Origin: an uncultured Verrucomicrobiota bacterium
GTDB lineage: Bacteria > Verrucomicrobiota > Kiritimatiellia > CAIVKH01
Assembly (NCBI GenBank): GCA_964503335.1
Contig: CAZCZZ010000003.1
Location: 41,384 to 105,383, forward strand
Length of the DNA: 64,000 nucleotides
Direction: 5' to 3'
The notes under the pieces are model-generated. The model made no database searches, was not told the origin of the DNA, and was given only the letters and a program-made list of their open reading frames with translations. The position numbers and the translations under genes are program-made. The first letter of the stretch is position 1. The number at the start of each line of letters is the position of its first letter. Positions 8,139 through 23,416 of this stretch are shown one piece after another.

Positions 8139-8255
8139 GCGAATGGGTACTCCTGGTTAAAAATGACCGCGTTTCGTACAAGGCTTTGCAGGCCTTGTCG
8201 ATACGATTTTTGGCATGCGGGAAAGCCTGATGGCGGTCGCTGGCACCCGTTCCAA

Positions 8256-9479
8256 CTAGTGCTCGAACGACAGGCGGACGCCCCGTCGCATGAATGTCGG
8301 TATGTCCAGGTCCTCGCCTTTGTAGACCGTGGGCTCGACGCCTTTGAAGCGGTCCTTGTCGAAGCGCTCAAAGACGAGTTCACCCTGCTCTCCTGAAGCC
8401 TTGCCACTTCGGGGCACGGCGGTTGCGATGCCGTCGAGCAGCGGCTCCGCAGGCTCGGAACCCTTGGTCTTCGGCGCTGCGGCACGCTTGTTTTCAAGCC
8501 AGTTCTCGGACACGAGCACGGTGACTGAGATGCGGTCGCGGAACGCCGGATCGATGATGGCGCCGAAAAAGAAGTGGCAGCCCGGCCGGACCATGCTCTG
8601 GATCTGGCCTGTGAGTCCTTGCATATCCGCAAGCGTCAGATCCGGTCCGCCCGTGATATTTACAAGCACACCGGATGCCTCCGCGAGGAGGCGTCCCTTC
8701 TCCAGTAATGGATTCTCGAGGAGCTGCTGCAGCACCACGGACCCGCGCGCGGAACCCGTCGCCTCGCTGTACGCATAAGCACACACGCCCCCGCTCCGCT
8801 CAGCAAGCGTGCGAACGTCGGCGAAGTCGAGGTTGATCACGCCGGCCTGTGACAGCAGCCGCCACAAGCCATGGATCCCCTTTCCCAGCATCTCATCGGC
8901 GGTGCGGAAGGCCTCTTCTACGCCAGCCTGCTGATCCACGACTTCGATCAATCGGGCATTCGGGAGACAAACCACGACATCTGCGACTTTCTGCAGGCTC
9001 TTGAGGCCTTCTTCTGCCACCCGCCTGCGGCGGTCGCCTTCAAACGGAAAGGGCATTGTCACAAAGCAAAGGGTCAGGATGCCCAGCTTCCGGGCGGCAT
9101 CCACCACGACAGGTCCCGCACCTGTTCCCGTTCCTCCGCCAAGCCCGGTGACGAGAAAGAGGAGATCCACCGAAGCGAGAAGCTCCTGGATTGCCTCAAG
9201 GCTCTCCTCGGCCGCCAAGCGACCCACCATGACTTCGCCGGCCGCACCAAGTCCGTGCGTGGTTTCCTTGCCGATCGGGATACACCGCTGTGCAGTGCAC
9301 GCGGAAAGGGCCTGCGAGTCCGTATTCATCGCGATGACGGGCGGGCCCTGCTTCCACGTCTCAGACATGCGCGCGACGGTATTGCAGCCCGCCCCGCCAA
9401 GGCCAAGCACAAGGATGCGGCAGCGCGGTGTGACACTGGAAACGTGGAACAGTCGATCAGGTGTTTCGGGACCGGGCAT
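8256..9479 (-). CDS. ftsZ: Cell division GTPase FtsZ.
   Basis: Tubulin signature GGGTGTGAGP. C-terminal conserved peptide DLDIPTFMRRG. AAGGAG Shine-Dalgarno 8 nt upstream of the ATG at 9479. The ORF track's 9500 is a TTG. Confidence 0.9.
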   Translation of the reverse strand: MPGPETPDRLFHVSSVTPRCRILVLGLGGAGCNTVARMSETWKQGPPVIAMNTDSQALSACTAQRCIPIGKETTHGLGAAGEVMVGRLAAEESLEAIQELLASVDLLFLVTGLGGGTGTGAGPVVVDAARKLGILTLCFVTMPFPFEGDRRRRVAEEGLKSLQKVADVVVCLPNARLIEVVDQQAGVEEAFRTADEMLGKGIHGLWRLLSQAGVINLDFADVRTLAERSGGVCAYAYSEATGSARGSVVLQQLLENPLLEKGRLLAEASGVLVNITGGPDLTLADMQGLTGQIQSMVRPGCHFFFGAIIDPAFRDRISVTVLVSENWLENKRAAAPKTKGSEPAEPLLDGIATAVPRSGKASGEQGELVFERFDKDRFKGVEPTVYKGEDLDIPTFMRRGVRLSFEH

Positions 9480-9489
9480 GGTCTTCTCC

Positions 9490-10716
9490 TTACCGTCCAA
9501 GCAACTTCCGGATCAGCGCGCCGATCGGCGTCTGGGGTTCATCCCTTTGCGCTGTACGTACCGCGTAGCGAAGCATGCCGATCGGTGCCGCATACTGGGC
9601 GCCTTCCGCGCCAAGGGTAAGGCCGCTGATATCACGCGGCTTGCCCAGCTCGCAGGGCAAGCCGAACGTCTTTTCACAGAGGACCGTCATCCCCTTGAGG
9701 TACGCTCCGCCTCCGGTCAGCACGATACCGGAGCCAAGGTGATGCAGCAGGTCGCGTTTTCCGGTCTGCTCAATCTGCTGGCGCACCATGTTCAGGATTT
9801 CTTCCGCGCGGTAGCTCGTGATGGTCTGCACATCACCGAGCCGAACCATGCGCCGGAGGGATCCGGTTTCGCCCAGCAACTCGATCTTCTGTCCCCGCGC
9901 TGCGGCGTCGAGGATGGCCGCCCCGTATTGCTCCTTCAGCGTCTCAGCTTGCGGCTGCGGTATCCGCAAGCCGCGCGCGAGGTCGTTTGTGACGTGATCA
10001 CCGCCAACGCCAAGGCAACCCGCCGCGGCGATTGCCCCGCCTGCGTATGCCAGATAGCTGACCGTGCCTCCGCCGAGGTCGATCACGAGGACGCCGTTTT
10101 CCTTCTGCTCAGGATCCAGGACGGCAAGACCGGAGCACAGGCCCGTAAAGGAGACATCGCGAACATCGACCGATACGCTGCTCGCCACGCGCACAAGGTT
10201 CTTCATCCGCGCACGAACGCCGTGCAGGATGAGCATGTCGAGCGAAAGGCGTGAGCCTTCGAGGCCGATCGGATTCACCACGCCGGCCTGGTCATCGACG
10301 TAATAGTGCTGGCAGATCGTGTGCAGGATGGCGCGGTCCGACGGCAGGTTGACCGTGCGCGCCGTGCTCATCACGTGGTCCATGTCCTCGCGGGCAATCT
10401 CGTGCGGCTCGTGGAGGATCGGAATGCTGCCGCGGTTCACCGTGCTCTGGAGATGACCACCCGAAACGAGAAGGTACACCTCGCTGATGGTCGTATTGCT
10501 GTTCTCCTCCGCGTTCTGGAGCGCGATTCGCACGCTGGCGACGGCATTTTCGAAATCGACAATCTCGCTTTTGCGGATGCCGCGCGAGGCACATTCGCCG
10601 AGGCCGGTGATAAAGAGGTGATTGTCGTCACGCGGCCGCGCCACCAGCGCCCTGACCTTCGTTGTGCCGATTTCCAGCGCGACGACGGGTTCGTCGTCCA
10701 TGTGTCGTTGGATCAT
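9490..10716 (-). CDS. ftsA: Cell division protein FtsA (actin-like ATPase).
   Basis: VALEIGTTKVRALVA N-terminus and DLGGGTVSYLAYAGG phosphate-binding motif. Its stop overlaps the ftsZ start. An alternative start lies at 10701. Confidence 0.85.
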   Translation of the reverse strand: MIQRHMDDEPVVALEIGTTKVRALVARPRDDNHLFITGLGECASRGIRKSEIVDFENAVASVRIALQNAEENSNTTISEVYLLVSGGHLQSTVNRGSIPILHEPHEIAREDMDHVMSTARTVNLPSDRAILHTICQHYYVDDQAGVVNPIGLEGSRLSLDMLILHGVRARMKNLVRVASSVSVDVRDVSFTGLCSGLAVLDPEQKENGVLVIDLGGGTVSYLAYAGGAIAAAGCLGVGGDHVTNDLARGLRIPQPQAETLKEQYGAAILDAAARGQKIELLGETGSLRRMVRLGDVQTITSYRAEEILNMVRQQIEQTGKRDLLHHLGSGIVLTGGGAYLKGMTVLCEKTFGLPCELGKPRDISGLTLGAEGAQYAAPIGMLRYAVRTAQRDEPQTPIGALIRKLLGR

Positions 10717-10728
10717 GGGAAGGATCTT

Positions 10729-11586
10729 CTACTGAACGGGAAAGTTTCGATCAACCGTGAGGTCCGCCACGGCCCAGGTCGTGCCCGAGTCGCGACGCTG
10801 TCGCGCGATCTCGGCAAGGGCCTCCAGCTTCACCCTCAAATTCTCTCGCGAGATCAGCGCGCGCTGTCCCGTGGAAAGCCGTGCCTCGATATACTCGGGA
10901 TGCGAAACATCGAGCGTCGCGAACTGGTAGATCTGCCCGATGCCGGGGCTCTGCGTAATCTCGATCGCCAGCAAGGCGTCGCCAACGGCGGGGTCCTTGA
11001 TCTGGCTGCCCGGTGACAAGCCCTTCTCGCGGATCCCGCTGATCGCAGGAAGCACCGTCGTGCGGGAAGCCACACCCAGGATGTAACCCTCGCGATCCAC
11101 CGAAAGATCCGCGGGCCAGTCCGGCTGCTTGATGCGCGCAATCGCGCTGCGCTCCGTCACACGTACCACCAGCGTGTCGGGCAGCTTCCGCCGCACCTCG
11201 GCATGCCGGACCAGCGGCACGCTCTCCAGGTCAGACCGGACCTGGTTGATATCGACAGCGAAAAGATTCAGGCCCTCGCTGAGCCGCGCGTACTCGCGGA
11301 TGTTCGAGGGCTGCAGGCGGCCGTTTGACTCGATGTCGAGATGCCTGATTTGGAAATACTCGTTCTCGGCGAACATCCAATTGTTCATCGCGTTCACGCC
11401 GACCATGCCGGCCCAGACGACGCCGGCGAGAGCGATGATGAGAAGGGCAATGGCCCCCAGCTTGTGGGCACGATCGCGGCCCGCTCCGGCAGAGCGAGCC
11501 TGTACGCGGAGGATTTCCTGACGGTCATGCGCGCGATACGCCTTGCGTCGTTTACCGGACATGGACTCGTCGTCTCGAAACCACAT
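10729..11586 (-). CDS. ftsQ: Cell division protein FtsQ/DivIB-like (POTRA domain). Start uncertain among 11610 (GTG), 11586 and 11562.
   Basis: Basic N-terminus, one TM helix (LGAIALLIIALAGVVWAG), then a periplasmic domain. Its position between ddl and ftsA matches the conserved division/cell-wall cluster order. Confidence 0.6.
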   Translation of the reverse strand: MWFRDDESMSGKRRKAYRAHDRQEILRVQARSAGAGRDRAHKLGAIALLIIALAGVVWAGMVGVNAMNNWMFAENEYFQIRHLDIESNGRLQPSNIREYARLSEGLNLFAVDINQVRSDLESVPLVRHAEVRRKLPDTLVVRVTERSAIARIKQPDWPADLSVDREGYILGVASRTTVLPAISGIREKGLSPGSQIKDPAVGDALLAIEITQSPGIGQIYQFATLDVSHPEYIEARLSTGQRALISRENLRVKLEALAEIARQRRDSGTTWAVADLTVDRNFPVQ

Positions 11587-11640
11587 GATCGAAGCAATCC
11601 TCCCCGCCACGGATTGTGTGCCGTGAAAGCACTTCGTCTA

Positions 11641-12552
11641 TCACACGCGTGCGTCGAGTCCAGCAAGATTTAGGATCATCTCACAAAGTTGCGGAAACTC
11701 GATGCCTGCCGCACGCGCGGCTTTCGGCAAAAGACTTGTCTCCGTGAACCCCGGAATCGTGTTGATCTCCAGCACAAACGGCTCACCGTCATCGGTCAGC
11801 CGGATATCCACGCGCCCCATCCCGCGACAGCCCAGGACCTCAAACGTGGCCCACGCGATCTCCTGGCAAAGCCTGGTCTCTTCGGGCGTCAGCGGCGCCG
11901 GCACGAGATACTCGGTCATGCCCTTCGTATATTTGGCTGTGTAACTATAGGAGCCGTCCGGGGCCCTGATCTCAATCACGGGAAGCACCTGGTTCCCCAC
12001 CACACCCACCGTCAACTCCCGTCCTTCGATGTACGCTTCAACGAGCGCCTCGTCGTTCAAGGCCAGCGCTGTCTCCAGTGCGGCAGGCCATTCTTCTTCC
12101 TTCGTGACTTTGCTGACGCCGACGCTCGAACCCTCGCGCGGCGGCTTCACGACCACTGGAAGCGATAGCGTGCGGGGTTCCCCCGCCTTCAAGACCTCGT
12201 AGCGTGCCGTCGGTATCCCATGCTTCTCAAAGAGCCGTTTGCTTGCCACCTTGTCAAAGGCCGTCCGGCTTCCCTCCACGCCGGAACCCGTGTACGGAAC
12301 GCCTCGCTCCTCCAGGATCTGCTGCAGTTCCCCGTCCTCCCCGAATGTGCCATGCAACGCAATGAACACGGCGTCGGTCTCCGTCGGTAGATCAAGCGTG
12401 CGCGAGGTCATATCCACTTCCGTGACGCTATACCCGATGGACCGGAGCCCGTTCGCTATGGCCGCGCCGGATCGCAGCGACACCTCGCGCTCCGAAGACG
12501 GCCCACCCTTCAACACCACCACCCGCTCAAACTTCTTTTGCATATGCGTCAT
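11641..12552 (-). CDS. ddl: D-alanine--D-alanine ligase.
   Basis: ATP-grasp protein whose N-terminus (VVVLKGGPSSEREVSLRSG) matches Ddl. Shares an ATGA overlap with the murC stop. Confidence 0.85.
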   Translation of the reverse strand: MTHMQKKFERVVVLKGGPSSEREVSLRSGAAIANGLRSIGYSVTEVDMTSRTLDLPTETDAVFIALHGTFGEDGELQQILEERGVPYTGSGVEGSRTAFDKVASKRLFEKHGIPTARYEVLKAGEPRTLSLPVVVKPPREGSSVGVSKVTKEEEWPAALETALALNDEALVEAYIEGRELTVGVVGNQVLPVIEIRAPDGSYSYTAKYTKGMTEYLVPAPLTPEETRLCQEIAWATFEVLGCRGMGRVDIRLTDDGEPFVLEINTIPGFTETSLLPKAARAAGIEFPQLCEMILNLAGLDARV

Positions 12553-13988
12553 CCCGAAAAAAGAGTTCCACTCGTCAAGGCAGCCTTTGCCCGGAAAGCC
12601 AGCTTCTCGACATCACCGGCGCCGACAATCAAAAGGACATCACCCGGCTCAACGGTAGACCTGATCCAATCCCATGCCTCGTCCAGCGAGTCCGCATACC
12701 GTGCGGGCGTCTCGCCAGCGCGTTCGAAGTATTTCATCAGGTCACGCGACGTTCCACCCTTTATCTCGGGTTCCGATGCGGCATAGACCGGCACAAGGAG
12801 GAGTTCCTGTACGCCGCGGAAAGAACGCGCAAAGGCATCGCCCAGCGCCAGTGTTCGAGAATATCGGTGGGGCTGAAATACGGCCACGAGCCGACGCCCG
12901 AGCAGGACGGCTTGTGTCATCAGGGCGCGGATCTCTGTGGGATGATGGGCGTAGTCGGAAATCACGAGTACACCGAACTGCTCCGCGATCTTCTCGAAGC
13001 GTCGCCTCGCGTTGGAGAATGACGCCAGGGCCGCGGCCATGGCATCGAACCGCAGTCCCAACTCCGTACCCACGACGAGCGCGGCAAGCGCATTGAGCAC
13101 GTTGTGACGGCCGGGCACAGGCAAGGAGACGGACCCCAGCACCGCGCCGCGGAACTGGACTTCAAACCGAATGCCCCCGGCATCCTCACTCCGGACCACT
13201 CCTCGCATATCGGATCGTTCGTCCATTCCGAACGTAAGCGCATGGTGAAGGCGGCGCGATAACGCAAAGGATTCCGGGTCATCCGCCCCGCAGATCACGC
13301 GGCGTCGCGTCTGGCCCGCGAACGTCGCAAAGCAATCGCGGAGCGCCTGCATGTCCCGGAAATAGTCGACATGGTCCAATTCCATGTTGGTGATGACGGC
13401 GATTTCCGGCTCGTACAGCGCCAGCGTGCCGTCGCTTTCGTCCGCTTCCACGACAAAGGCACGGTCCTTTCCAGCGACAGAAACGCCGCCCAAGGCGTCC
13501 GCTTCTCCGCCTACCGCGTAGGATGCATCGACACCGCACGTCCTCAGGAGGTGCGCGATCATCGTTGTCGTGGTGGTCTTGCCGTGGGTTCCGGACACGG
13601 CGACGGCATTTGCATCCCGTAACAAGGCAGGCAGGACCACGCCGCGACGAAAGACCCTGAGCCCCCGCCCCATCGCGGCCTTCACCTCCGGCTCATCGTT
13701 GCGAACCGCGGGACTTCGGACACACCAGGCCACGTCAGCGGCGAGATGGCTCGCATCGTGGCCGACAGCGACCGGAATCCCGCGCTCTCCGAGCCAATGG
13801 GTCACGCTCCCGAGCGTGGCGTCGCAGCCGGACACTTTGAAACCGCGACCCTGGAGGTGCACCGCGACACCGGCCATGCCGACACCGCCGATGCCAAGCA
13901 TGTGGATATGTCCATTGCGGGCTGACAGCAGGGCGTGGACCTCGCCCACCTCGGCGCGAAGCACCGCCAGATCAGACGACCCCTGCAT
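12549..13988 (-). CDS. murC: UDP-N-acetylmuramate--L-alanine ligase.
   Basis: HIHMLGIGGVGMAGVAVHL and SGTHGKTTTT Mur-ligase motifs. The ORF track extends to 14123. The ATG at 13988 overlaps the murG stop. Confidence 0.8.
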   Translation of the reverse strand: MQGSSDLAVLRAEVGEVHALLSARNGHIHMLGIGGVGMAGVAVHLQGRGFKVSGCDATLGSVTHWLGERGIPVAVGHDASHLAADVAWCVRSPAVRNDEPEVKAAMGRGLRVFRRGVVLPALLRDANAVAVSGTHGKTTTTTMIAHLLRTCGVDASYAVGGEADALGGVSVAGKDRAFVVEADESDGTLALYEPEIAVITNMELDHVDYFRDMQALRDCFATFAGQTRRRVICGADDPESFALSRRLHHALTFGMDERSDMRGVVRSEDAGGIRFEVQFRGAVLGSVSLPVPGRHNVLNALAALVVGTELGLRFDAMAAALASFSNARRRFEKIAEQFGVLVISDYAHHPTEIRALMTQAVLLGRRLVAVFQPHRYSRTLALGDAFARSFRGVQELLLVPVYAASEPEIKGGTSRDLMKYFERAGETPARYADSLDEAWDWIRSTVEPGDVLLIVGAGDVEKLAFRAKAALTSGTLFSG

Positions 13989-15072
13989 AGTGCTCCGCCC
14001 CTGTCTTCTCAACGAGCTCCGCCAAGGCATCCGCACCGCTCTTCGTGGCCCGCGCCCTGGCTGCGTCATGCAACCGCTGCAGTCGCGCACCAGAACGTGC
14101 ACTATTGGCGAGGTAACCGACAAGCCACTCAGCGTTCAAGTCGCGCTCCGGTATCACATCGGCCGCGCCGACTTTCTCCATCGCGCGGGCATTCAGCATC
14201 TGGTGATTGCGGACGGCAGACGGATACGGAACGAGAAGCGATGGAATTCCGAACGCCGACAGCTCGGCGCAGGTTGCCGCCCCCGCCCGGCAAATCGCTA
14301 CATCGGTTGTTTCGTAAACGGAGGCCATGTCATGCACAAAGCTAAACACCTCGTGCGGTACGCCAGCTTCGGAATAGACCTGCCGGACGTGGTCCACATC
14401 CCTGGTGCCCGCCAGGTGCTTCACCTTCAGGAGATGCCCGCGACGATGCGCCTCGCACACAGCCTTTGTGACGATCTCGTTCAATGCGTGGGCACCACGG
14501 CTACCGCCCATGACGAGGAGTGAAAGTGCGGGATCACGCGACGGATCCCATTGATGCTTCATCGCGCGTTCCTCGAGATCTCGGCGCAGGGGCATCCCGG
14601 TCAGTTCGATTCGGCGTCCGCGAAGGTAGAAGCGCGACTCATCGAAGCACACGCCCGTCGCCGCGGCCCAACGCGAGAACAGCGAGACGGCTCTTCCAGG
14701 AATTGCGTTCGATTCATGCAGGACGAACGGAATCTTCAGCTTCATCGCGGCGGAGACCGGCCCCACGGACGCATAGCTTCCCATCGCGAGCAGCACGTCC
14801 GGATTCTCCTTCCGCATGATCGCACGGCAGGCGCGGGATGCCTGGATCATGGAATACGTCGACGAAATCACCTTGATGCCCAGCCCTGTGGGCAGTCCTT
14901 GGGAGCGCACGGTGATGACAGGGCCTGACCAGCCCTTTACGGCCGACGCCTCAACGTCCTTGCCGGCCAGCCAGAGCGTCACGTCATGGCCGCGGCGAAC
15001 CAGGGCTTCTGCGGTGGCCAGCCCGGGGAAGATGTGTCCGCCGGTTCCACCACATGCGAGGGCGATCTTCAT
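13972..15072 (-). CDS. murG: Undecaprenyldiphospho-muramoylpentapeptide beta-N-acetylglucosaminyltransferase.
   Basis: MKIALACGGTGGHIFPGLA N-terminus and GT28 fold. Sits in the conserved cluster position. Confidence 0.85.
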   Translation of the reverse strand: MKIALACGGTGGHIFPGLATAEALVRRGHDVTLWLAGKDVEASAVKGWSGPVITVRSQGLPTGLGIKVISSTYSMIQASRACRAIMRKENPDVLLAMGSYASVGPVSAAMKLKIPFVLHESNAIPGRAVSLFSRWAAATGVCFDESRFYLRGRRIELTGMPLRRDLEERAMKHQWDPSRDPALSLLVMGGSRGAHALNEIVTKAVCEAHRRGHLLKVKHLAGTRDVDHVRQVYSEAGVPHEVFSFVHDMASVYETTDVAICRAGAATCAELSAFGIPSLLVPYPSAVRNHQMLNARAMEKVGAADVIPERDLNAEWLVGYLANSARSGARLQRLHDAARARATKSGADALAELVEKTGAEHYAGVV

Positions 15073-15099
15073 GGAGTTGCCTGCGGAAAGGCCATGGCA

Positions 15100-15639
15100 T
15101 CACATGATCGCGCGGAAAAGCATGAAGCCGATCAACAGGACGACGACGGCCATGATGATCGCCTTGTTTCGCTGGATCTTGCGCTCATGGGTCAGCGGGC
15201 GCGATTTTCCGAAGCTGCCGCTCGACAGGTAACTGGCGAAGCGCTCGGTGTTGGGAACAACGCGACGTTTCGTATCAACGGACAGTGGCCGCTGCGTCTC
15301 TGCTACCGTTCCCAACTCTTCGGGCGCAAACAGTTCGCCCGTCGGCGGCGGCGTGCGGTTTGTCCTGCCGGCAAACGTCTTCTCCAAGGCGCGGCGCGCG
15401 CTGTCGGTCGAAGCGGTCACATCACGACTCGCCGTCGCAGGCGTCGACTGAACTGCCGGCGGAGCGTCCGATGTCTTCGGCGCGTCATACGCTGACGACA
15501 CCAGCGTGGGCATTTCACCGGCGCCGGGCTTCTTCAGGACGCGCTGCAGGCTGCGAATATCCTTCTCGATCAGCGACGACTGCTCCTGCAGCTCGCGAAG
15601 CCTGCGCTCGTACAGCGGGTTCTTCTTGTTTTCCGGCAT
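15100..15639 (-). CDS. Hypothetical tail-anchored coiled-coil protein (N-terminal coiled coil, Pro/Thr/Ser-rich linker, single C-terminal TM helix).
   Basis: 179 aa. C-terminus AIIMAVVVLLIGFMLF. Located immediately upstream of murG on the same strand. No recognisable family. Confidence 0.5.
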   Translation of the reverse strand: MPENKKNPLYERRLRELQEQSSLIEKDIRSLQRVLKKPGAGEMPTLVSSAYDAPKTSDAPPAVQSTPATASRDVTASTDSARRALEKTFAGRTNRTPPPTGELFAPEELGTVAETQRPLSVDTKRRVVPNTERFASYLSSGSFGKSRPLTHERKIQRNKAIIMAVVVLLIGFMLFRAIM

Positions 15640-15654
15640 GCTTCTCCGTGCTCG

Positions 15655-16416
15655 CTAGATCAGGGCATTCACGTGCGCGACGTAGTACACGATCGCGATA
15701 AGGAGCAAGGTGATTACCAGCGGGAGCGTCACGCCAACACCAACCTTCAGCCAGTAGCCGAACGTCTTCTCGGACTCGTGCGCGTAGCCGTGATCTTCAA
15801 ACATAACCGTCGGGGCGGCGGCGCCGGACGGCGGGGCCGTCTTCGTCTCGCCTTTCACGGCTTCGATCTTGGCGAGCGACTTGTTGTACTCCATCCGCGT
15901 CTCTTCGATGATGCCGAGGCTGCGGACGAGGTTGTCGCGAATCTCCTCCTCGGGCCACTCATCTTCCTTGATCTCATCGATATCGGACAGCATCGACTTG
16001 AACCGCTTACGCGTGGAGCTGAGCATCTCGACCATGCGCTGGCTTTCGACTTCCTGGCGTTCCAGGGTCACAAGGCTGCGCTTCAGGTGTTCGACGATCT
16101 CACGCTTGCCGCGCTCGTAATCCTCGTGCTTCCGCTGCAGCTCTTCGAACTGGCGCTTCTCCTGCTCAAGCTGCTCCTGGCGCTTCTTCAGGCGGTCGAG
16201 TTCCTGCTGGGCCGCCGTGGTCTGCTCGGACGCCTCGGCTTTGTGTTTCGCCATGCGGGTCAGGTTGAAGTCCGACACGGGGCGGACAGGCACTTCGTCA
16301 CGCGCGCCCTGCTCGCCGAGCGTTTCCACCGGCTCGTCACCGGGAGCCATGCGAAGCCGCTTCGCATTGTCGCGCTGCCGCACCAGGTCATCGTCAAAGA
16401 AATCCGTACCGGACAT
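15655..16416 (-). CDS. Hypothetical tail-anchored coiled-coil protein (long charged heptad region, single C-terminal TM helix).
   Basis: 253 aa. E/K/R/Q-rich coiled coil. C-terminus VTLPLVITLLLIAIVYYVA. AGGAGG Shine-Dalgarno before the ATG at 16416. Confidence 0.5.
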   Translation of the reverse strand: MSGTDFFDDDLVRQRDNAKRLRMAPGDEPVETLGEQGARDEVPVRPVSDFNLTRMAKHKAEASEQTTAAQQELDRLKKRQEQLEQEKRQFEELQRKHEDYERGKREIVEHLKRSLVTLERQEVESQRMVEMLSSTRKRFKSMLSDIDEIKEDEWPEEEIRDNLVRSLGIIEETRMEYNKSLAKIEAVKGETKTAPPSGAAAPTVMFEDHGYAHESEKTFGYWLKVGVGVTLPLVITLLLIAIVYYVAHVNALI

Positions 16417-16434
16417 ATCAACCTCCTGTAATCG

Positions 16435-17178
16435 CTACGTCGAGGGAATGGTCAACGTCTGTCCCACTTTCAAACTTTGTGGGGTCGTCAGAATACCTCG
16501 ATTGGCCTTGTAAATCACTTCCCATTTTGACGCGTCGCCATAGACACGCGTGGCGACACGCGACAGCGTGTCGCCCGCCTGAACCACGTAGGTCTTCACA
16601 AGCACGGGCTCGGCAGGCTTCGGCGGCGGAAGCGTCGTATCGCGCTCGACGGCCGTTGTGGCGGGAGGCGCTGCCTGGGCCGAGGTTGCCGGAGGCACAG
16701 GCGGCGACACGGCGCGGGTTGCCTGCTGGTTCGTGAGCTGCTGCTGCAGCGTCTCGACTTCACGCTTCAGCAATGCGATCTGCTGCACGGCTTCGTTGGG
16801 ACGGTCCGGAAGCGACGCCGCAAAGGAGAGCCGCGCGTGCTGGATCAAGTCCTTGACGAGGGTCGCCTTCTCCGCCGTCGGCCTCATCTCAAGGTATCGC
16901 TGGTAGTGATAGATGGCCCGCACGTAGTCTTCCTTGTGCTCATCATAGATGAAACCAAGTTCGAGGTGGGCCATGGCAAGGCCGGGCTTCCGCTCCAGGG
17001 CCTTGTTGTAGAGCTCAATCGCGGCGTCGTAGTCCGTCTCGCGCAGGCGCTCCTGCGCCTTGCGATATATGGGGTCGCGCTCGTCCCGGTTGTCGAGCGC
17101 TCCGGCGCCGCCGCAGCCCGCCATCGTTCCGAGGGCGGCTGCACAGACGGTCAGGGCAAGAAAATGTTTGCAACGCAT
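16435..17178 (-). CDS. Lipoprotein with TPR repeats and a C-terminal LysM peptidoglycan-binding domain.
   Basis: Lipobox LGTMAGC. TPR-like AIELYNKALERKP...YHYQRYLEMRP. LysM motif YVVQAGDTLSRVATRVYGD...VGQTLTIP. ATG at 17178; the ORF track's 17187 is a TTG. Confidence 0.7.
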   Translation of the reverse strand: MRCKHFLALTVCAAALGTMAGCGGAGALDNRDERDPIYRKAQERLRETDYDAAIELYNKALERKPGLAMAHLELGFIYDEHKEDYVRAIYHYQRYLEMRPTAEKATLVKDLIQHARLSFAASLPDRPNEAVQQIALLKREVETLQQQLTNQQATRAVSPPVPPATSAQAAPPATTAVERDTTLPPPKPAEPVLVKTYVVQAGDTLSRVATRVYGDASKWEVIYKANRGILTTPQSLKVGQTLTIPST

Positions 17179-17209
17179 GCGTTCCAAGTATCACGCGACC
17201 GAGGACGCG

Positions 17210-17920
17210 TCAATCTTGGCCGAGCCCTTTCGGTGTCCTCGTCAGGAAGGAAAGAACCTTCCCCATGAGGCCGTTGATGGTGTTGTACTTATGCATGGAG
17301 GCGGAAAGGATGTCCGGCCCGGCCTGCACGTAAGTGTCCGGCACAAGTTCATGCCCGCAATGGCGCACAAGATCCGCGGCGGTTTGAGGCGTCGTTTCAA
17401 GGTGAAACTGAAGGCCGATGGCCGTGCCGCCAAGCTGGAAGGCCTGGTTCCGGCAGGCATCGTTTTCGGCCAGCAGAATTGCCCCATCGGGAAGGTCAAA
17501 GGTCTCACCATGCCAGTGGAAGACTTCAACGGATTCCGGGAAGGTGAATACGTCGCGGGAAGACGCATGAAGCCCGCGTACGGGAAACCAGCCGATCTCC
17601 TTCTTCACATTCGGATACACGCGCGCACCCATGGCGCTGGCGATGAGTTGGGCGCCAAGGCACACCCCAAGGACGGGCGTCCCTGCTTCAATGGCCTGCC
17701 GCACGAACCGCTTCTCGTCCACAAGCCAGGGCAACTCGACTTCGTCGTTCACGCTCATGGGACCGCCCATCGCGATCACGAGATCAACGTCGCGAAGTTC
17801 AGGAAGTTGCGGCCATTCAAAGAAGCGCGTGGCGGTGATGGTGTAACCGGCCTCCATCAGCCACGGGATCATGCTGCCCGGACCCTCGAAAGGCACATGT
17901 TGAAGGACGTGCGCTCTCAC
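17210..17920 (-). CDS. Class I (type 1) glutamine amidotransferase-like protein.
   Basis: VLQHVPFEGPG N-terminus, GVCLGAQL catalytic Cys motif and HWHGETF. Probably GTG-initiated. Its stop overlaps the kdsB start region. Confidence 0.7.
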   Translation of the reverse strand: MRAHVLQHVPFEGPGSMIPWLMEAGYTITATRFFEWPQLPELRDVDLVIAMGGPMSVNDEVELPWLVDEKRFVRQAIEAGTPVLGVCLGAQLIASAMGARVYPNVKKEIGWFPVRGLHASSRDVFTFPESVEVFHWHGETFDLPDGAILLAENDACRNQAFQLGGTAIGLQFHLETTPQTAADLVRHCGHELVPDTYVQAGPDILSASMHKYNTINGLMGKVLSFLTRTPKGLGQD

Positions 17921-18666
17921 GGTCCGACAAGGCCCGCGGCGCGGAGAGCAGCTTCCGCCTTGGGCACGTCATCCGGTGTATCGACGCCAAGCCCGAAATC
18001 CTTCGTCTGCGCCACGAACATGCGCGCACCCAGATAGAGGGCGCGGAGCTGCTCAAGCTTCTCCGCTTCTTCCAGCGGACACGGCGGCGTCTTCACCAGC
18101 GTGCGGAGGAAGGAGGCCCGGTAGGCATAAATGCCGATATGGCGCCAGTGCAGTCCACTCGCGTTCGCTCCCGGATCCCGCACGTGTGGAATCAACGAAC
18201 GCGAGAAGTACATCGCGCGACCGGATTGATCCCATACCACTTTGACGACCGCGGGATTCGCGAGGTCCTTCGGATCAGAAAGCGGCGTTGCCGCCGTGGC
18301 CATGTCCCACGACATGTCGCTCTTCATCTTCCTGCCGAGCGAATCGATCAGAGCGGGATCAATCAACGGCTCATCGCCCTGCACATTGATAACGACATCG
18401 GCGGGTACCTGCCCCAAGGCCTCGGCGATGCGATCGGTCCCCGTCGGATGATCCGACCGCGTCATCACCGCCTTGCCCCCGAATCCCTGAACGACAGACC
18501 GTATGCGTTCGTCATCGGTCGCCACGACCAGGTCGTCCAACACCGTTGCCTTGCGCGCCCGCTCATAGACCCACTGAATCAGCGGCTTGCCGCAGAGCGT
18601 GATGAGACTTTTCCCGGGAAGCCGCGTGGACCCGTATCGCGCTGGAATAATGCCGATGATGGACAT
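17917..18666 (-). CDS. kdsB: 3-deoxy-manno-octulosonate cytidylyltransferase (CMP-Kdo synthetase).
   Basis: IIPARYGSTRLPGKSL N-terminus, VINVQGDEP and other KdsB hallmarks. 249 aa. Confidence 0.85.
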   Translation of the reverse strand: MSIIGIIPARYGSTRLPGKSLITLCGKPLIQWVYERARKATVLDDLVVATDDERIRSVVQGFGGKAVMTRSDHPTGTDRIAEALGQVPADVVINVQGDEPLIDPALIDSLGRKMKSDMSWDMATAATPLSDPKDLANPAVVKVVWDQSGRAMYFSRSLIPHVRDPGANASGLHWRHIGIYAYRASFLRTLVKTPPCPLEEAEKLEQLRALYLGARMFVAQTKDFGLGVDTPDDVPKAEAALRAAGLVGP

Positions 18667-18672
18667 GGTGAC

Positions 18673-19677
18673 CTAGACCATGGACGCGATGTAGGCGATC
18701 AATTCTTCCTGCGTGCAGGTTGCGGTGCCGAGTTTGCCGACGACTACGCCGGCGGCGTAGTTTGCGATCTCGGCGGCTTCGACGTGGTCGGCCCCGGCGG
18801 CGAGGGCGAGGACACAGGTCGCGATGACGGTGTCCCCTGCTCCGCTGACATCGTACACCTCACGCGCCCGAGTTGGAACGTGGCGCGGCTTTTCTTTGTC
18901 GGAGACAAGCAGCATACCGTGGGGACCGAGCGTGATCGCGAGGAAGTCCGGCTTCCATCGCTTGAGGAGAATGCGCCCGACTTCAAGCAGCGCTTTGTCC
19001 TTAAGCGGATTCGCTTCGGGCCGCGTTTCATCGCGACCAGCGCCCACGAACGCTTCCTTGCGGTTCGGCGTGGCGACCGTGATGCCGCCGACGCGCAGCC
19101 GTTCGTTATCTTTCGGGTCGAGGCCGACAGGGATTCGCTTCCGGCGCGCAGCTTTCAGGACCGTGTCGACCACGAACTGTTGGACAACCCCTTTGCCATA
19201 GTCCTCGATGATCACGCCGGAGCACTTCCGCACCTCGGCATCGACCTTGCGCGCAAATGCCGCACGGGAAGCGCGGTTGAACGACCACGACTTCTCCCAG
19301 TCGATTCGGACGATCTGTTGCCGGTCGGCCAGCACCCGGGACTTCACGATCGTCGGAATGTCCTGGAGCACCGTCACGCCTGCCGTGCGGATGCCATTCT
19401 GCTTGAGGATGGAAGTGAGTTCCGTCCCCGCGTCATCGCGTCCGATCACGCCGCACACGGAGGCGCCGCCGCCGAGCGCGCGAAGGTTCAGCGCGACGTT
19501 GGAAGATCCGCCGGGAACGGCCCGTTCGCGATCGACATGGACCACCGGCACGGGTGCTTCGGGCGAGATGCGGCTGACCGACCCGTGGATGTAGCGGTCG
19601 AGCATGAGGTCGCCCACCACCAGAATGCGCTGCTTCCTGCAGCGGCGGAGTATGTCGCGTACGCGGTCAAGATTCAT
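18673..19677 (-). CDS. PfkB-family sugar kinase resembling D-glycero-beta-D-manno-heptose-7-phosphate kinase (HldE domain I / HldA-like), stand-alone.
   Basis: ILVVGDLMLDRYIHGSVSRISPEAPVPVV N-terminus, typical of RfaE/HldE domain I. C-terminal VSGAGDTV PfkB motif. No fused adenylyltransferase domain. Confidence 0.65.
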   Translation of the reverse strand: MNLDRVRDILRRCRKQRILVVGDLMLDRYIHGSVSRISPEAPVPVVHVDRERAVPGGSSNVALNLRALGGGASVCGVIGRDDAGTELTSILKQNGIRTAGVTVLQDIPTIVKSRVLADRQQIVRIDWEKSWSFNRASRAAFARKVDAEVRKCSGVIIEDYGKGVVQQFVVDTVLKAARRKRIPVGLDPKDNERLRVGGITVATPNRKEAFVGAGRDETRPEANPLKDKALLEVGRILLKRWKPDFLAITLGPHGMLLVSDKEKPRHVPTRAREVYDVSGAGDTVIATCVLALAAGADHVEAAEIANYAAGVVVGKLGTATCTQEELIAYIASMV

Positions 19678-19723
19678 AAGGACACCTGAATGGGCCTTAC
19701 TCTTGGATTCCCAGCCGCTTGCG

Positions 19724-20521
19724 TCAATCCCGATCCTTCACGGGCTTGACCCACAGGTCGTCGCCCGGACCGAGCACCTTGTTCAAGCTCAGGCGGATAT
19801 TGGCGACCGGCACCTCGGCCATCATGCGCGCACACAGGCGGCGCTCATCCTGGCTTACCCAGAACGTGACCTTGCCCTTGCGGACAAACAGGCCCTGAAA
19901 GGCCGCTTCGGGCTCAACGCGAATGGTCTCAATCTTGCCGAAGCGGTCGAGCTTCACCGTCTCGATCTTCTTCGGCTTCACGAACACCTCGTACAGTTTC
20001 TCGTCGGCCATGATGCGATGGACCGTCGTCCCGCCGACGTTAAAGCCATCCTTCCGGAGGTAGTACATGAGTGAAATGATGTCGCGCGTGTCCTCCGCGA
20101 TCGCAAATTCCTTCTTCTTGCCGCTCTTGTGGGATTCCCATTTCGCGATCTTGTTCGCGTGGTCAAAGAGCGTGACCTCGTCCGCCCTGTACTTTCCCTC
20201 ACTCAGCTTCTTCACAAACCGCAACGGTAGGAAGGTCTCTGGATCAACCAGGCTCTCGAGCAGGTCGTTCACGGGATAGATCGAATCCATGAGGCCGTAG
20301 GTCTTCGTGCGGAAGCGGATGGCGATGACCTTGCGGCCTTCGAATTCCTCCCACGACGTCGTGACGTGCGTTTGTCCGATGTCGAGGAAGCCCCACTCGA
20401 TGTCGTAAATCTGTTCCTCGCCGACCTGAAACCAGAGATTCGTCGGCTGCTCGCCCTCCGCACGTGCAGGCCCCGCGCTGGTGATGATCACGAGGACGAG
20501 GACCAGCCACCGCAGCTTCAT
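19724..20521 (-). CDS. DUF3108-like secreted protein.
   Basis: Signal peptide, then all-beta sequence whose size and pattern recall DUF3108 proteins. Family call is tentative. Confidence 0.4.
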   Translation of the reverse strand: MKLRWLVLVLVIITSAGPARAEGEQPTNLWFQVGEEQIYDIEWGFLDIGQTHVTTSWEEFEGRKVIAIRFRTKTYGLMDSIYPVNDLLESLVDPETFLPLRFVKKLSEGKYRADEVTLFDHANKIAKWESHKSGKKKEFAIAEDTRDIISLMYYLRKDGFNVGGTTVHRIMADEKLYEVFVKPKKIETVKLDRFGKIETIRVEPEAAFQGLFVRKGKVTFWVSQDERRLCARMMAEVPVANIRLSLNKVLGPGDDLWVKPVKDRD

Positions 20522-21654
20522 GCCGCCTCCGCCGATTTGCGCTGTGGCTTGAGCCAGCGAATGATCGCGAGTTCAAGGAGTAGCTCCGGCGGAACCGAGC
20601 TGGATCGCACCTGCTCTTGCAGTGACAGGATGTCGTTCTTGAGCGAGAGCAGTTCCTGCATCGAGAACTTTGCAGCGATCTCGGCGGCTTTCGTCACGCG
20701 GAATGGATGCATCTTGCGCGGATCGGGATCAAGCATCGACAGCATCCGATCCACCGCAGGGTCATCGCTCCACTCCGGGTTGCCGTAGCGCGCGGGCGGA
20801 CGCATCCAGCGCCGCTGGATGCAGTCCTTGATAATCAACCATTCGCGCGCGCTCTTCTCGAGGAATGTGAGCATCAGGATGGGATGCTGTCGCTGCGCCA
20901 GCAACAACCGCAACTGCTTCAAGGCTTCGCGCAGGTTTCGCTCGCCGACAAACTGCGCCAACTCCCACGGCGGAATCTCGCGCGTCGGGGCGACCATCGT
21001 GAGCACATCCTGCAGGGTCACGTCGCGGCGCTTCTGTACATACAGATCGAGCTTCTCGACCTCCTGTCGAAGCATCCTGATGTCCGGCCCAACCCGCGCC
21101 ACGAGCGCCTGACGGGCCGACTCCTCCATCCGCAAGCCGTGCTGCTGAATCAGGTCGGCCAGTGCTTCCCTCGTGAACGCGTCCGCCTCGCGAGCCTTGT
21201 CGGGCACACTGAATTCGCGCACCTCGGCAGCGGTCTGGCAGGCCTTGTAGAACGCGGAACGTTTGTCCACCGCGGGCGAACTGATGACGAGCTTCTGTCC
21301 ATCCATGACGCCGCGCTTGATCTCATCGACCAGCTCGCCGACCTTCTTTTTTACTTCCTCGTACTTTCCCGGCTCGCCGCTGCTGAGGAAGCTGGCGTCC
21401 TTCAGCCAGATCGTCTTGCCGGCGCCGAAGAAGCCGACGGTCTGGACGGCGAGAAGCGTCTTGGACACGGCATTGACGGCCTCGTCCACGGTGTCCACGG
21501 CCCCATCGATGACATCCAGGCTCAGCGACTGCTGGTCCTGCGGACACAGAGAATTCACAAGCTCCCGGCACGAGGTGGACACCTGGTCGGCATCGTCCCC
21601 GAAGACGAGAAAGACCGTCTTCGCTGTTTCCGCCTTCTTGCTACTTGTCGCCAT
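20518..21654 (-). CDS. holA: DNA polymerase III delta subunit-like protein.
   Basis: 378 aa. N-terminus VFLVFGDD..., then helical C-terminal domains with delta-subunit-like architecture. Moderate confidence from pattern only. Confidence 0.5.
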   Translation of the reverse strand: MATSSKKAETAKTVFLVFGDDADQVSTSCRELVNSLCPQDQQSLSLDVIDGAVDTVDEAVNAVSKTLLAVQTVGFFGAGKTIWLKDASFLSSGEPGKYEEVKKKVGELVDEIKRGVMDGQKLVISSPAVDKRSAFYKACQTAAEVREFSVPDKAREADAFTREALADLIQQHGLRMEESARQALVARVGPDIRMLRQEVEKLDLYVQKRRDVTLQDVLTMVAPTREIPPWELAQFVGERNLREALKQLRLLLAQRQHPILMLTFLEKSAREWLIIKDCIQRRWMRPPARYGNPEWSDDPAVDRMLSMLDPDPRKMHPFRVTKAAEIAAKFSMQELLSLKNDILSLQEQVRSSSVPPELLLELAIIRWLKPQRKSAEAA

Positions 21655-22543
21655 GATCGTTGCTTGCCCGCCTGTACGTCACCATGCCATCCAGCATGCG
21701 ATGCAGCTTTCGAGATTGCTCCGTTGTAACTCCGAAACGATCCGACAAAAGGCTCAAGAAATCAATGTCCCGTCCGTCGCAGGCCGCGCGAATCACGTCC
21801 GGGAACACTTCTTCGCCCAGTTGTTGAACGGTCCACGCCACGACGGCCTCGGTTGTCGCATAAAACGCCCGGGCCTGATACGTATCGGGTGGATACGCGT
21901 TCTGCCGCTCTGCCTGCTTGAGCGACATCGCCCGCACTTCACCGCGGCTGAACGACTTGTCCGCGTCCTCTCCCTGCTTCTCCAGGAACTCCCTCTCGAC
22001 CTCATTCCCCAGGTAGAGCGCTGTTCCTTCGTCCAGCCAAAGCGGCAGGTTGTCCGCGCACAACTCGCGCACGCGGACATGAACCAGCTCGTGCACCACG
22101 CGCCGCGCCATGTCCCCGTCTGCCCTGGCCGTCAATACGAAGAGCTCCCTGCCCAACTGCATCGCCAGCCCATCCGGACGAAACCCGTGCTTCTGAATCA
22201 ACTTCTCCCACTGCTTCTCGTCGTCGATGAGAAAGACGTGGATCTTCTGTGTGCGCGCCGGCAGGTAGAGCTTGCGGCCGATCTCGTCCACGGCGAATCC
22301 CGCTGCCTGCGCCGCGGCATCGACGCTCCGGATCGATGCGCCGTGACAGATCGTGCGGTCACCCTCCGCGTGAAACCACGCGGTGCCACCCGACTCGAGC
22401 ACCTGCCTGCCCAGGGCGGAGAGCTCACGGTCCGACACATCAAGCCACGCCTTCATCCGGTAGACCGGCGCATCTTCCCCGGCGCGCGCGATGCCAGCCG
22501 CGACGAGCAGGCCACAGAACATCCGGATGATGGGTCGAAGCAT
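21641..22543 (-). CDS. Secreted HExxH metallopeptidase-like protein.
   Basis: Signal peptide MLRPIIRMFCGLLVAAGIARA and HELVHV zinc-binding motif. The ORF track start at 22573 is a TTG. ATGs at 22543 and 22522. Confidence 0.45.
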   Translation of the reverse strand: MLRPIIRMFCGLLVAAGIARAGEDAPVYRMKAWLDVSDRELSALGRQVLESGGTAWFHAEGDRTICHGASIRSVDAAAQAAGFAVDEIGRKLYLPARTQKIHVFLIDDEKQWEKLIQKHGFRPDGLAMQLGRELFVLTARADGDMARRVVHELVHVRVRELCADNLPLWLDEGTALYLGNEVEREFLEKQGEDADKSFSRGEVRAMSLKQAERQNAYPPDTYQARAFYATTEAVVAWTVQQLGEEVFPDVIRAACDGRDIDFLSLLSDRFGVTTEQSRKLHRMLDGMVTYRRASNDHGDK

Positions 22544-22612
22544 TCTCACTCTTGCTGACGGTAGAGTCCGCAAGCTACCTTGTCACGAGTGAACCCGACC
22601 GCTTCCCATTCG

Positions 22613-23416
22613 ATGTTCCGAGAGCATGTCGTGCGTGCCCTGCGCGCCACGGGACTGCTGCAGCTTTACGACACCGCAAAGTTCGGCGCCTGCACGCTGT
22701 CGGCGCAAAATGCCAACCGTGCATTCATCGCGGAGCATCCCACCCTGGCCCTTCCGCCTCTGTCTCTTATGTATGACGCCTACGGCCACGTACAGTATTC
22801 GGTCTATCACGAAGGCGGCCAAGCCCACGCGGCATACATCCACGGGCTTGCAACGAAGGTCCTCGGGCAGCCCCCCACGAGCATCCTGGAGTGGGGCTGC
22901 GGACCGGCCCGCGTGATCCGTCACATGCCGCTTTCGCCCGGACACCGCGTCATCGGCACGGACTACAATCCCGACACGATCGCGTGGTGCCGAAAGGCCG
23001 TGCCCGGGATTGAGTTCATCGAGAATGGCCTTGAGCCCCCGCTCGCCATCGAAAGCGGAAGCGTCGCACTGGTCTACGCGCTATCCGTCTTCACGCATCT
23101 TTCCGAGGCGATGCACAAGGCATGGCGCGACGAATTATTCCGCGTCCTGCGTCCCGGCGGCATCCTCATCGCCACGTTGCACGGCGACTTCTACCGCGAA
23201 CGGCATCTACTGGATGACGAACGCACGACCTATGACGCCGGACGCCTTGTCGTCCGCGGCGGCGTCCGCGAAGGCCGCAAATGGTTCGCCGCCTTCCACA
23301 GCCCGAAATACGTGCGCGAATCCTTCGCCGGCCCCTTCGAAGTTATCGAACACCTCCCCAGCCCCCTCCCCAACAGCATCGAACAGGACATCTGGGTCCT
23401 CCGCCGCCCTGCATGA
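22613..23416 (+). CDS. Class I SAM-dependent methyltransferase.
   Basis: ILEWGCGPARV glycine-rich SAM-binding motif and VLRPGGILI. The ORF track start at 22580 is a TTG. Confidence 0.7.
   Translation: MFREHVVRALRATGLLQLYDTAKFGACTLSAQNANRAFIAEHPTLALPPLSLMYDAYGHVQYSVYHEGGQAHAAYIHGLATKVLGQPPTSILEWGCGPARVIRHMPLSPGHRVIGTDYNPDTIAWCRKAVPGIEFIENGLEPPLAIESGSVALVYALSVFTHLSEAMHKAWRDELFRVLRPGGILIATLHGDFYRERHLLDDERTTYDAGRLVVRGGVREGRKWFAAFHSPKYVRESFAGPFEVIEHLPSPLPNSIEQDIWVLRRPA

Follow-up and report, generated by a model that had tools for sequence, protein, structure and literature searches.

Conserved genes for a LysM lipoprotein and two tail-anchored proteins, often found ahead of murG-ftsZ, in Kiritimatiellia and related bacteria

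What might a predicted lipoprotein and two small membrane-anchored proteins contribute to a bacterium that encodes them directly ahead of murG, murC, ddl, ftsQ, ftsA and ftsZ? The question is posed by a stretch of 64,000 nucleotides from an uncultured member of the Verrucomicrobiota (the window), on the minus strand of which three genes, here called C, B and A in their reading order, precede this run of cell-wall and division genes. An earlier first-pass annotation had placed the three open reading frames (ORFs) at this site, and a check of the ORFs together with Pfam and tblastn searches agrees with it. The answer favoured here is that C, B and A make up a conserved module of the cell envelope, specific to Kiritimatiellia and related bacteria of the Planctomycetes-Verrucomicrobia-Chlamydiae (PVC) group, which in this genome forms the first three genes of a conserved block running into murG-murC-ddl-ftsQ-ftsA-ftsZ. 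The genes of the block are as follows.

16435-17187 (TTG start, 250 aa) or 16435-17178 (ATG start, 247 aa), minus strand: gene C, an ORF for a predicted lipoprotein
15655-16416, minus strand: gene B, 253 aa, ATG start, predicted tail-anchored coiled-coil protein
15100-15639, minus strand: gene A, 179 aa, ATG start, predicted tail-anchored protein directly downstream of B
13972-15072, minus strand: murG (Pfam)
12549-14123, minus strand: murC (Pfam), probable true start at ATG 13988
11641-12552, minus strand: ddl (tblastn identity)
10729-11610, minus strand: ftsQ (Pfam)
9490-10716, minus strand: ftsA (tblastn identity)
8256-9500, minus strand: ftsZ (Pfam)

The three genes are closely packed, with intergenic gaps in the window of 18 nt between C and B, 15 nt between B and A, and 27 nt between A and murG, a spacing that fits co-transcription of C-B-A with murG-ftsZ in this genome. 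AGGAGG stands before the start of B, and the G+C content at third codon positions of the three genes (0.76-0.83) is on a par with that of the adjacent genes. Scans of positions 8000-22800 were uninformative on operon limits: no sigma-70-like promoter sites were returned, and terminator-like sites occurred at shuffle expectation, with none prominent between C and ftsZ. The assignments of ddl and ftsA come from tblastn matches (58-71% and 46-67% identity, respectively) to genes of related loci that carry Dala_Dala_lig and FtsA domains, and FtsZ ends in ...GEDLDIPTFMRRGVRLSFEH, which bears out the C-terminal FtsA-binding peptide previously read there. Upstream of the trio, on the same strand, lie kdsB and a gene for a PfkB kinase, and the order kdsB, GATase, C, B, A, murG, murC, ddl was found again in independent assemblies. 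Gene callers on identical contigs choose the ATG form of C (247 aa). On such contigs murC is called as a protein of 479 aa from ATG 13988, with a 17-nt overlap with murG; the longest murC ORF starts at TTG 14123, about 150 nt beyond the murG boundary.

Relatives show how much of this arrangement is kept. A scan of species-representative genomes returned 123 genomes, from which 80 loci were retained; window proteins were mapped onto these loci by tblastn, all neighbouring ORFs were clustered, and murG counts were restricted to the 66 loci with at least 3.5 kb of downstream sequence. C stands ahead of B in 68 of the 71 loci that could be evaluated, with a median of 24 nt from the stop of C to the start of the B ORF, and A follows B in 69 of 76. 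The trio is in turn followed by murG in 35 of the 66 loci, where the order from murG to ftsZ is preserved. The expectation that relatives would carry these genes upstream of murG therefore holds for 35 of the 66 loci, the closest long contigs among them, and fails for the rest. Two loci of close relatives, L090 and L091 (66% and 58% identity in B), read C-B-A-ogt-murG-murC-ddl-ftsQ-ftsA-ftsZ, with gaps of 3-104 nt and a 4-nt overlap of ogt and murG; their upstream genes are unrelated, yet the block from C to ftsZ is intact. Over the relatives inspected for spacing, gaps run at 4-30 nt, with 104 nt the widest. The GATase and kdsB genes of the window are shared by none of the surveyed loci. In a tree built for B by neighbour joining, clades with a link to dcw genes (those for division and the cell wall) lie on either side of the midpoint root and unlinked clades stand between, a pattern that fits ancestral dcw linkage with repeated loss, repeated gain being the alternative.

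The features of B are listed below.

16369-16407, minus strand: B residues 4-16, acidic-hydrophobic N-terminal peptide TDFFDDDLVRQRD, the family hallmark (TDFFDDDL)
16243-16284, minus strand: B residues 45-58, RPVSDFNLTRMAKH, second conserved peptide, where the long helix begins
15841-16278, minus strand: B residues 47-192, a helix of about 100 residues and a 37-residue return helix, predicted to form a coiled-coil rod with a helical-hairpin base
15670-15762, minus strand: B residues 219-249, C-terminal membrane helix (hydropathy and AlphaFold2)

Kyte-Doolittle hydropathy gives B one hydrophobic stretch, at about residues 221-253 and thus at the extreme C-terminus, and the heptad (3.5-residue) periodicity of residues 55-147 exceeds that of all 2000 shuffles. 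An AlphaFold2 model calculated from an alignment of 120 homologues (mean predicted local distance difference test score (pLDDT) of 79) lays the chain out as a disordered arm (1-46), a helix (47-147), a return helix (156-192), a linker and the membrane helix (219-249), which is trailed by 4-7 residues; the N-terminal peptide, with pLDDT <50, is modelled as flexible. Mean column identity over the 120 sequences is 64%. Invariant among them are F6, D8, D10, L11 and R15 in the N-terminal peptide, N51, L52, T53 and R54 in the second peptide, and W222, G226 and P232 in the membrane helix, where K224 is kept in at least 90%. The family is large: a word-index search gave 277 homologues of 49-100% identity, nearly all of about 250 aa, and an exhaustive profile search gave 751 cluster representatives at E<=1e-3 (512 at E<=1e-10), all unnamed. 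Among the top 150 representatives, 147 have the C-terminal hydrophobic helix. TDFFDDDL or near variants stand at the extreme N-terminus of distant representatives too, the strict pattern being matched by 77 of the 150; the second peptide, present in 22 of the 150, is confined to nearer family members. Compared by eye, this second peptide, (S)DFNLTRMA(K/R)H, shows a loose likeness to DLDIPTFMRR, the C-terminal peptide of FtsZ (8265-8300), the common pattern being acid, hydrophobic, D/N, hydrophobic, two variable positions, hydrophobic, one variable position, R and a basic residue.

The smaller partner, A, is built from fewer ordered parts.

15526-15618, minus strand: A residues 8-38, short N-terminal coiled-coil helix (..ERRLRELQEQ..IRSLQRVLKK), conserved in orthologues
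15160-15246, minus strand: A residues 132-160, membrane-adjacent motif ERFASYLSSGSFGKSRPLTHERKIQRNKA, after a variable proline-rich linker
15109-15159, minus strand: A residues 161-177, C-terminal membrane helix (hydropathy; C-termini of 75 orthologues)

A single hydrophobic stretch is again found by Kyte-Doolittle hydropathy, from about residue 155 to the end, and the chain runs from the short coiled coil through a proline-rich, mostly disordered linker, the length of which differs widely among orthologues, to the membrane-proximal motif and the membrane helix. N-terminal coiled coils had been ascribed to both proteins; the description suits B, by the periodicity of residues 55-147 and by the model, and in A it applies to only about 30 residues, those at 8-38, the heptad periodicity of which is matched by only 0.55% of 2000 shuffles. 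The hallmark of the A family lies near the membrane (ERFASYLSSGSFG...QRNKA). Within the nearer set of sequences Y137, S140, G141, S142, F143, R157 and A160 are invariant, and in a more diverse set Q156 is invariant with Y137, R157 and A160 kept in at least 90%. The helix is at the extreme C-terminus in 75 orthologues, and the chain stops 0-3 residues past it. Profile searching returned at least 158 homologues, all unnamed and, among those listed, 148-194 aa long. Together, the QRNKA motif of A and the invariant W222, G226 and P232 of B suggest specific contacts within the membrane, beyond anchoring. The idea that A is a truncated paralogue of B was rejected on an hhalign probability of 7.9%.

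Gene C differs from its neighbours in being predicted to encode an exported protein.

17113-17187, minus strand: C residues 1-25, signal peptide and lipobox (..LGTMAG-C25), the sole hydrophobic stretch in C
16813-17073, minus strand: C residues 39-125, TPR-like helical repeats (AHLELA..YD..DY.RAIYHYQRYLELRP conserved; Pfam and NCBIfam TPR)
16444-16599, minus strand: C residues 197-248, LysM peptidoglycan-binding domain (Pfam PF01476 over residues 200-248)

Cys25 is invariant in 51 orthologues, the residues leading to it being conserved as [AG]-G-C or [AS]-G-C, so that C, with a signal peptide and a lipobox bearing an invariant Cys, has the predicted features of a bacterial lipoprotein. Its LysM domain scores 31.9 bits against a Pfam cut-off of 20.9 and is a member of that family by score. 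The TPR assignment is closer to the line: TPR_1 reaches 28.2 against 27.8, TPR_16 32.6 against 32.7, and TPR_11 and TPR_2 fall slightly under their cut-offs. The earlier description of C as a lipoprotein with a LysM domain is upheld, and its TPR part is borderline. A single-sequence AlphaFold2 model has a mean pLDDT of 62.6, too low for a fold search; it shows the helices of residues 39-125 at low to moderate confidence and, for LysM, a strand at 197-201, helices at 208-216 and 219-228 and a strand at 244-248 (beta-alpha-alpha-beta), with 10-residue block means of 77-90 across 201-250. From the N-terminus, the order is signal peptide and lipobox, TPR-like helical domain, long helix, proline-rich spacer (159-196, 29% proline) and LysM, and the arrangement of TPR, helix, proline spacer and LysM corresponds to no named family. 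The NCBIfam models for BamD/YfiO (TIGR03302; 39.5 bits, E=4e-10, against a cut-off of 81.4) and CpoB/YbgF (TIGR02795; 15.6 against 90.1) both leave C below family membership.

Are A and B known under another name? Searches of Pfam, NCBIfam, PADLOC and PHROGs returned no family match for either, B giving coiled-coil noise only (SMC, Rad50, JetC, E ~1e-3), and Protein Data Bank sequences and folds gave nothing above generic coiled-coil noise. At E<=0.1, Pfam offers no family for A or B, hence no match to DivIC, FtsL, ZapA, ZapB, ZipA, EzrA or DUF883, and division families are matched by none of 21 B homologues. No known unrelated family was assigned to A or B by profile search, an outcome that would otherwise have counted against the first-pass annotation; its statement that the two have no detectable homology is right for described families and wrong overall, both proteins having many unnamed homologues. 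On these searches, A and B are members of large, strongly conserved, previously undescribed protein families, and literature searches found no paper mentioning the A, B or C proteins. Where homologues carry source labels, these read Kiritimatiellia, Kiritimatiellae, Verrucomicrobia, Lentisphaerae or 'PVC group', all for metagenome-assembled genomes, and they point to Kiritimatiellia and the PVC group over Verrucomicrobia proper, to which likeness had first been ascribed. A defence-system or phage origin of the trio was rejected; profile searches gave only LysM and TPR for C and coiled-coil noise for B.

The tail-anchored class assigned from the beginning is supported by hydropathy: neither A nor B has a signal peptide, each has a single helix in its last ~30 residues, basic residues (RKIQRNK of A, K224 of B) stand ahead of the helix, and the chain ends 0-7 residues beyond it. 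From this layout we infer that the bulk of both proteins is cytoplasmic.

Topology bears directly on the role first proposed for them, namely that A and B are functional equivalents of FtsB/FtsL or ZapA, or membrane tethers of FtsZ, replacing missing parts of the divisome. In its favour are their place in one block with ftsQAZ, the design of coiled coil plus membrane helix, and the loose likeness by eye of the second B peptide to the FtsZ peptide. FtsB and FtsL (DivIC, PF04977; FtsL, PF04999) are likewise small bitopic coiled-coil proteins encoded with division genes, and FtsQ is in the block here. However, they have an N-terminal membrane helix and a periplasmic leucine zipper, whereas A and B have a cytoplasmic coiled coil and a helix at the extreme C-terminus; this is the opposite topology, and it leaves the periplasmic domain of FtsQ without a coiled coil to contact on that side. 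The absence of a Pfam family for A or B also speaks against such equivalence, as does the separation of the trio from fts genes in half of the species. A tether for FtsZ is not obviously needed, because FtsA and the canonical FtsZ C-terminal peptide are already there. ZipA and EzrA, lineage-restricted Z-ring accessories, are comparable in plan, each having a single membrane helix, a long cytoplasmic portion that is flexible or coiled-coil and, at the far end, an element that binds the partner; but they have an N-terminal anchor and defined FtsZ-binding domains or spectrin-like repeats, and A and B match neither in sequence or fold. A survey of Kiritimatiellota reference genomes found the dcw genes highly conserved and implies that ftsB is among them (PMC12283558), again contrary to replacement. 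Taken together, these points make the proposal very improbable.

The same survey alters how the position of the trio is read. The three genes had been thought to occupy the place of ftsW and murD; ftsW, murD and mraY are all lacking among the 38 window ORFs scanned against Pfam, and, given the conservation of dcw genes in the Kiritimatiellota survey, the trio heads the second half of a split cluster instead. It is thus no substitute for FtsW or MurD, and no equivalent of FtsB or FtsL.

Other systems offer likenesses of design, the topological label 'tail-anchored' being the only class to which A and B belong by sequence. The closest functional analogy to B and A is the pair SteA and SteB of Corynebacterium glutamicum, septal cell-separation factors of the RipC-FtsEX pathway, in which SteA has a cytoplasmic domain on a C-terminal membrane helix that is needed beyond anchoring and SteB is a small membrane protein (PMC6705760). 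The likeness is one of architecture only, with no relationship of sequence expected: both are lineage-specific adjacent gene pairs, and the membrane helix of B, too, contains invariant residues. In contrast to SteB, the extracellular domain of which binds the hydrolase RipC, A and B have no extracellular domain, and whereas septal localization was shown for SteA and SteB, A and B are known here from their genes alone. For its part C, a predicted lipoprotein in which a long helix and a domain for binding peptidoglycan accompany TPR-like repeats, is reminiscent of the lipoproteins LpoA and BamD, the periplasmic TPR protein CpoB/YbgF and the wall-binding LysM lipoproteins NlpD and DipM. Proteins assembled from such parts link the outer membrane with the making or splitting of peptidoglycan as the cell constricts. 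C lacks the LytM domain of NlpD and DipM, and falls short of both the BamD and the YbgF family cut-offs. Polar landmark proteins of the FimV/HubP/TspA type carry LysM, an anchor in the membrane, TPR-like repeats and a long cytoplasmic region of acidic coiled coil. The trio may be said to spread the same ingredients over separate polypeptides, but in FimV/HubP they stand on a single chain and TPR is cytoplasmic, whereas here the exported lipoprotein C bears both TPR and LysM, and no homology was detected. As a kind, then, lineage-specific membrane-anchored coiled-coil accessories encoded with division genes are not categorically new.

How might the three proteins act together? In the favoured reading, C would be exported and lipid-anchored in the periplasm, where LysM would bind peptidoglycan and the TPR surface and long helix would serve as a site of protein contact. 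B would insert tail-first in the inner membrane, its ~100-residue helical rod, probably dimeric, pointing into the cytoplasm and its flexible N-terminal arm recruiting a cytoplasmic partner to the membrane via the invariant TDFFDDDL; A, with its short coiled coil and long flexible linker, would use its membrane-proximal motif or its membrane helix to pair with B. The module could in this way serve at the membrane as an accessory scaffold or regulator, acting in division or in the late part of peptidoglycan-precursor synthesis; this role would be the most likely one because the module would be made together with the last enzymes of lipid II synthesis and with FtsQAZ. We put the probability that the trio is an accessory scaffold or regulator of the cell envelope, peptidoglycan synthesis or division, co-expressed with murG-ftsZ, at roughly 0.4. 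In its favour are the tight gaps, the survival of the C-to-ftsZ block despite differing flanks and the murG link on both sides of the B tree; the partial presence of envelope genes near the unlinked trio as well (GT9 and LpoB-family genes, described below), with kdsB and the PfkB kinase in the window; the strong constraint on B, the membrane-side motif of A and the lipobox and LysM of C, as read from sequence; and the precedent of SteA and SteB, a pair of comparable build that works at the septum.

Several observations weigh against this reading. Next to the trio, murG is missing in 31 of the 66 evaluable species loci, and in one unlinked group it is gatC-gatA-gatB (recognized by eye) and a T2SSE-type ATPase gene (Pfam) that follow. 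Four distant contexts of B (204-279 aa) have no murG or dcw genes nearby (0 of 4). The functional link of A and B is drawn from gene order alone, with no homology to any function, and the two proteins would have almost no periplasmic residues, so that coupling to C would need other membrane proteins. The B dimer, the A-B pairing and the partner of TDFFDDDL are conjecture, the arm being disordered in the AlphaFold2 model. Gene order is, moreover, weaker functional evidence than the first-pass annotation assumed, because about half of the species carry the trio away from the dcw genes.

The variable setting of an otherwise constant trio is what would be expected if C-B-A were a module of general use to the envelope or outer membrane (for instance in tethering membrane to wall, keeping the envelope intact, or aiding lipoprotein or lipopolysaccharide assembly) with no division-specific role, the murG site being one of several that are tolerated. 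Constancy of C and A beside B (68 of 71 and 69 of 76) against 35 of 66 for murG is in line with this. So are, in two unrelated contexts, lipopolysaccharide genes that lie immediately ahead of the trio and run in its direction, kdsB with the PfkB kinase gene in the window and a GT9 heptosyltransferase gene in an unlinked clade, where the trio lies between that co-directional gene and a convergent gene for an LpoB-family lipoprotein; the best match of the TPR region of C to BamD-type lipoproteins, below the TIGR03302 cut-off, points the same way. A module of this kind leaves unexplained, however, why the C-to-ftsZ block survives rearrangement of its flanks and why linkage is found on both sides of the B tree, and A and B, cytoplasmic save for their anchors, would be odd for an outer-membrane function. 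We consider it somewhat unlikely. The GT9 clade itself comprises L058-L069, L076, L077 and L083 (around locus coordinate 10000), with genes for a Ser/Thr kinase, an RF-1-domain (ArfB-like) protein, a holin-4-family membrane protein and the GT9 heptosyltransferase upstream on the same strand, and genes for an unknown lipoprotein and the LpoB-family lipoprotein (PF13036) downstream and convergent.

The distant contexts raise a further explanation, in which B and A have a cytoplasmic, membrane-associated function apart from the wall, such as the tethering of the chromosome, DNA-repair factors or ribosomes, and have merely inherited their adjacency to C and the dcw genes. A small ORF for an A-like tail-anchored partner lies directly after B in all four of these contexts and a C-like TPR protein gene upstream in two, the downstream neighbours being mutL (L085), pheA, ogt (L088) and gatC, so that the evolutionary core is B-A. 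A gene for an MGMT-type Ogt (PF01035) also stands between A and murG in 34 of the 66 evaluable loci, with the PCHR active site intact in the representative from L057, and, contrary to a wall-specific module, it stays behind A in six loci without murG as well as in L088. Its coordinates in four relatives, each numbered within its own locus, are as follows.

11175-11687 (L001): ogt
11301-11804 (L090): ogt
11248-11772 (L091): ogt
9028-9447 (L088): ogt

The window has no ogt; the gene has been cleanly lost, leaving the 27-nt gap between A and murG (15073-15099). A DNA-repair gene is oddly placed inside a cell-wall and division block. Because this unrelated gene sits in the cluster in about half of the loci, gene order can evidently persist without common function, and with the trio unlinked from dcw in half of the species and ogt inside, inference of function from neighbouring genes is insufficient here.

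Also compatible with a function apart from the wall is the resemblance by eye of TDFFDDDL to the acidic tip of SSB, DFDDDIPF, but the SSB tip acts as a free C-terminus whereas the motif of B is N-terminal. ElaB and YqjD, tail-anchored proteins of E. coli, associate with ribosomes; A and B have no Pfam family, however, and hence no link to DUF883/ElaB or to a DNA-binding domain. Within the near clade C accompanies B in 68 of 71 loci at the short median spacing given above, which sits poorly with mere inheritance of C, and the adjacency of ogt and mutL is perhaps coincidental. We regard this explanation as unlikely. What the contexts do indicate is a layering in evolution: a B-A core pair, with C added in the Kiritimatiellia-type clade, and often ogt and the murG-ftsZ block added to that.

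Returning to the accessory scaffold or regulator, its boldest form would make B and A a PVC-specific class of tail-anchored scaffolds that dock FtsA, FtsZ or MurG via TDFFDDDL and, with C, constitute a new sub-complex of the divisome filling ZipA-, FtsN- or Zap-type roles. This version is doubtful; a lineage-specific accessory role in division or peptidoglycan synthesis, without that further detail, is plausible.

Some features of the surroundings deserve record. In most of 24 sequences (window 8256-8300; L001-L057), FtsZ of these bacteria has an extra conserved tail, (I/V)KLSFE(R/K), after GEDLDIPT(F/Y)(I/L)RRG, which could be a second binding motif or a membrane-contact motif. After ftsZ, the window has malQ (6612-8138) and, directly downstream of it, two overlapping tandem paralogues (4054-5316 and 5309-6562) of about 420 aa each with a VanZ-like domain; in relatives the place after ftsZ is taken instead by genes for a protein with the metallo-beta-lactamase fold, for DUF5989 and for a yggS-type protein (Ala_racemase_N). 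A DUF2961 gene (~770 aa; neighbour-ORF cluster 26) recurs at 2-3 kb upstream of C in 12 or more related loci, dcw-linked and unlinked alike, including L010, L018, L020, L024, L026 and L027; the window copy is at 35810-38128 on the plus strand, about 19 kb off the trio. An ORF of 2317 aa at 38986-45939, with LamG-like, right-handed beta-helix and PKD domains, probably encodes a secreted polysaccharide-active or adhesin-type protein. No tRNA or tmRNA genes were found across the whole window (1-64000).

Bacteria of the PVC superphylum divide in unusually varied ways, and beyond model phyla the accessory proteins of the divisome are essentially unknown. With their defined peptide motifs and frequent linkage to murG-ftsZ, the families of A and B are candidates for lineage-specific regulators of wall synthesis or division in these bacteria.

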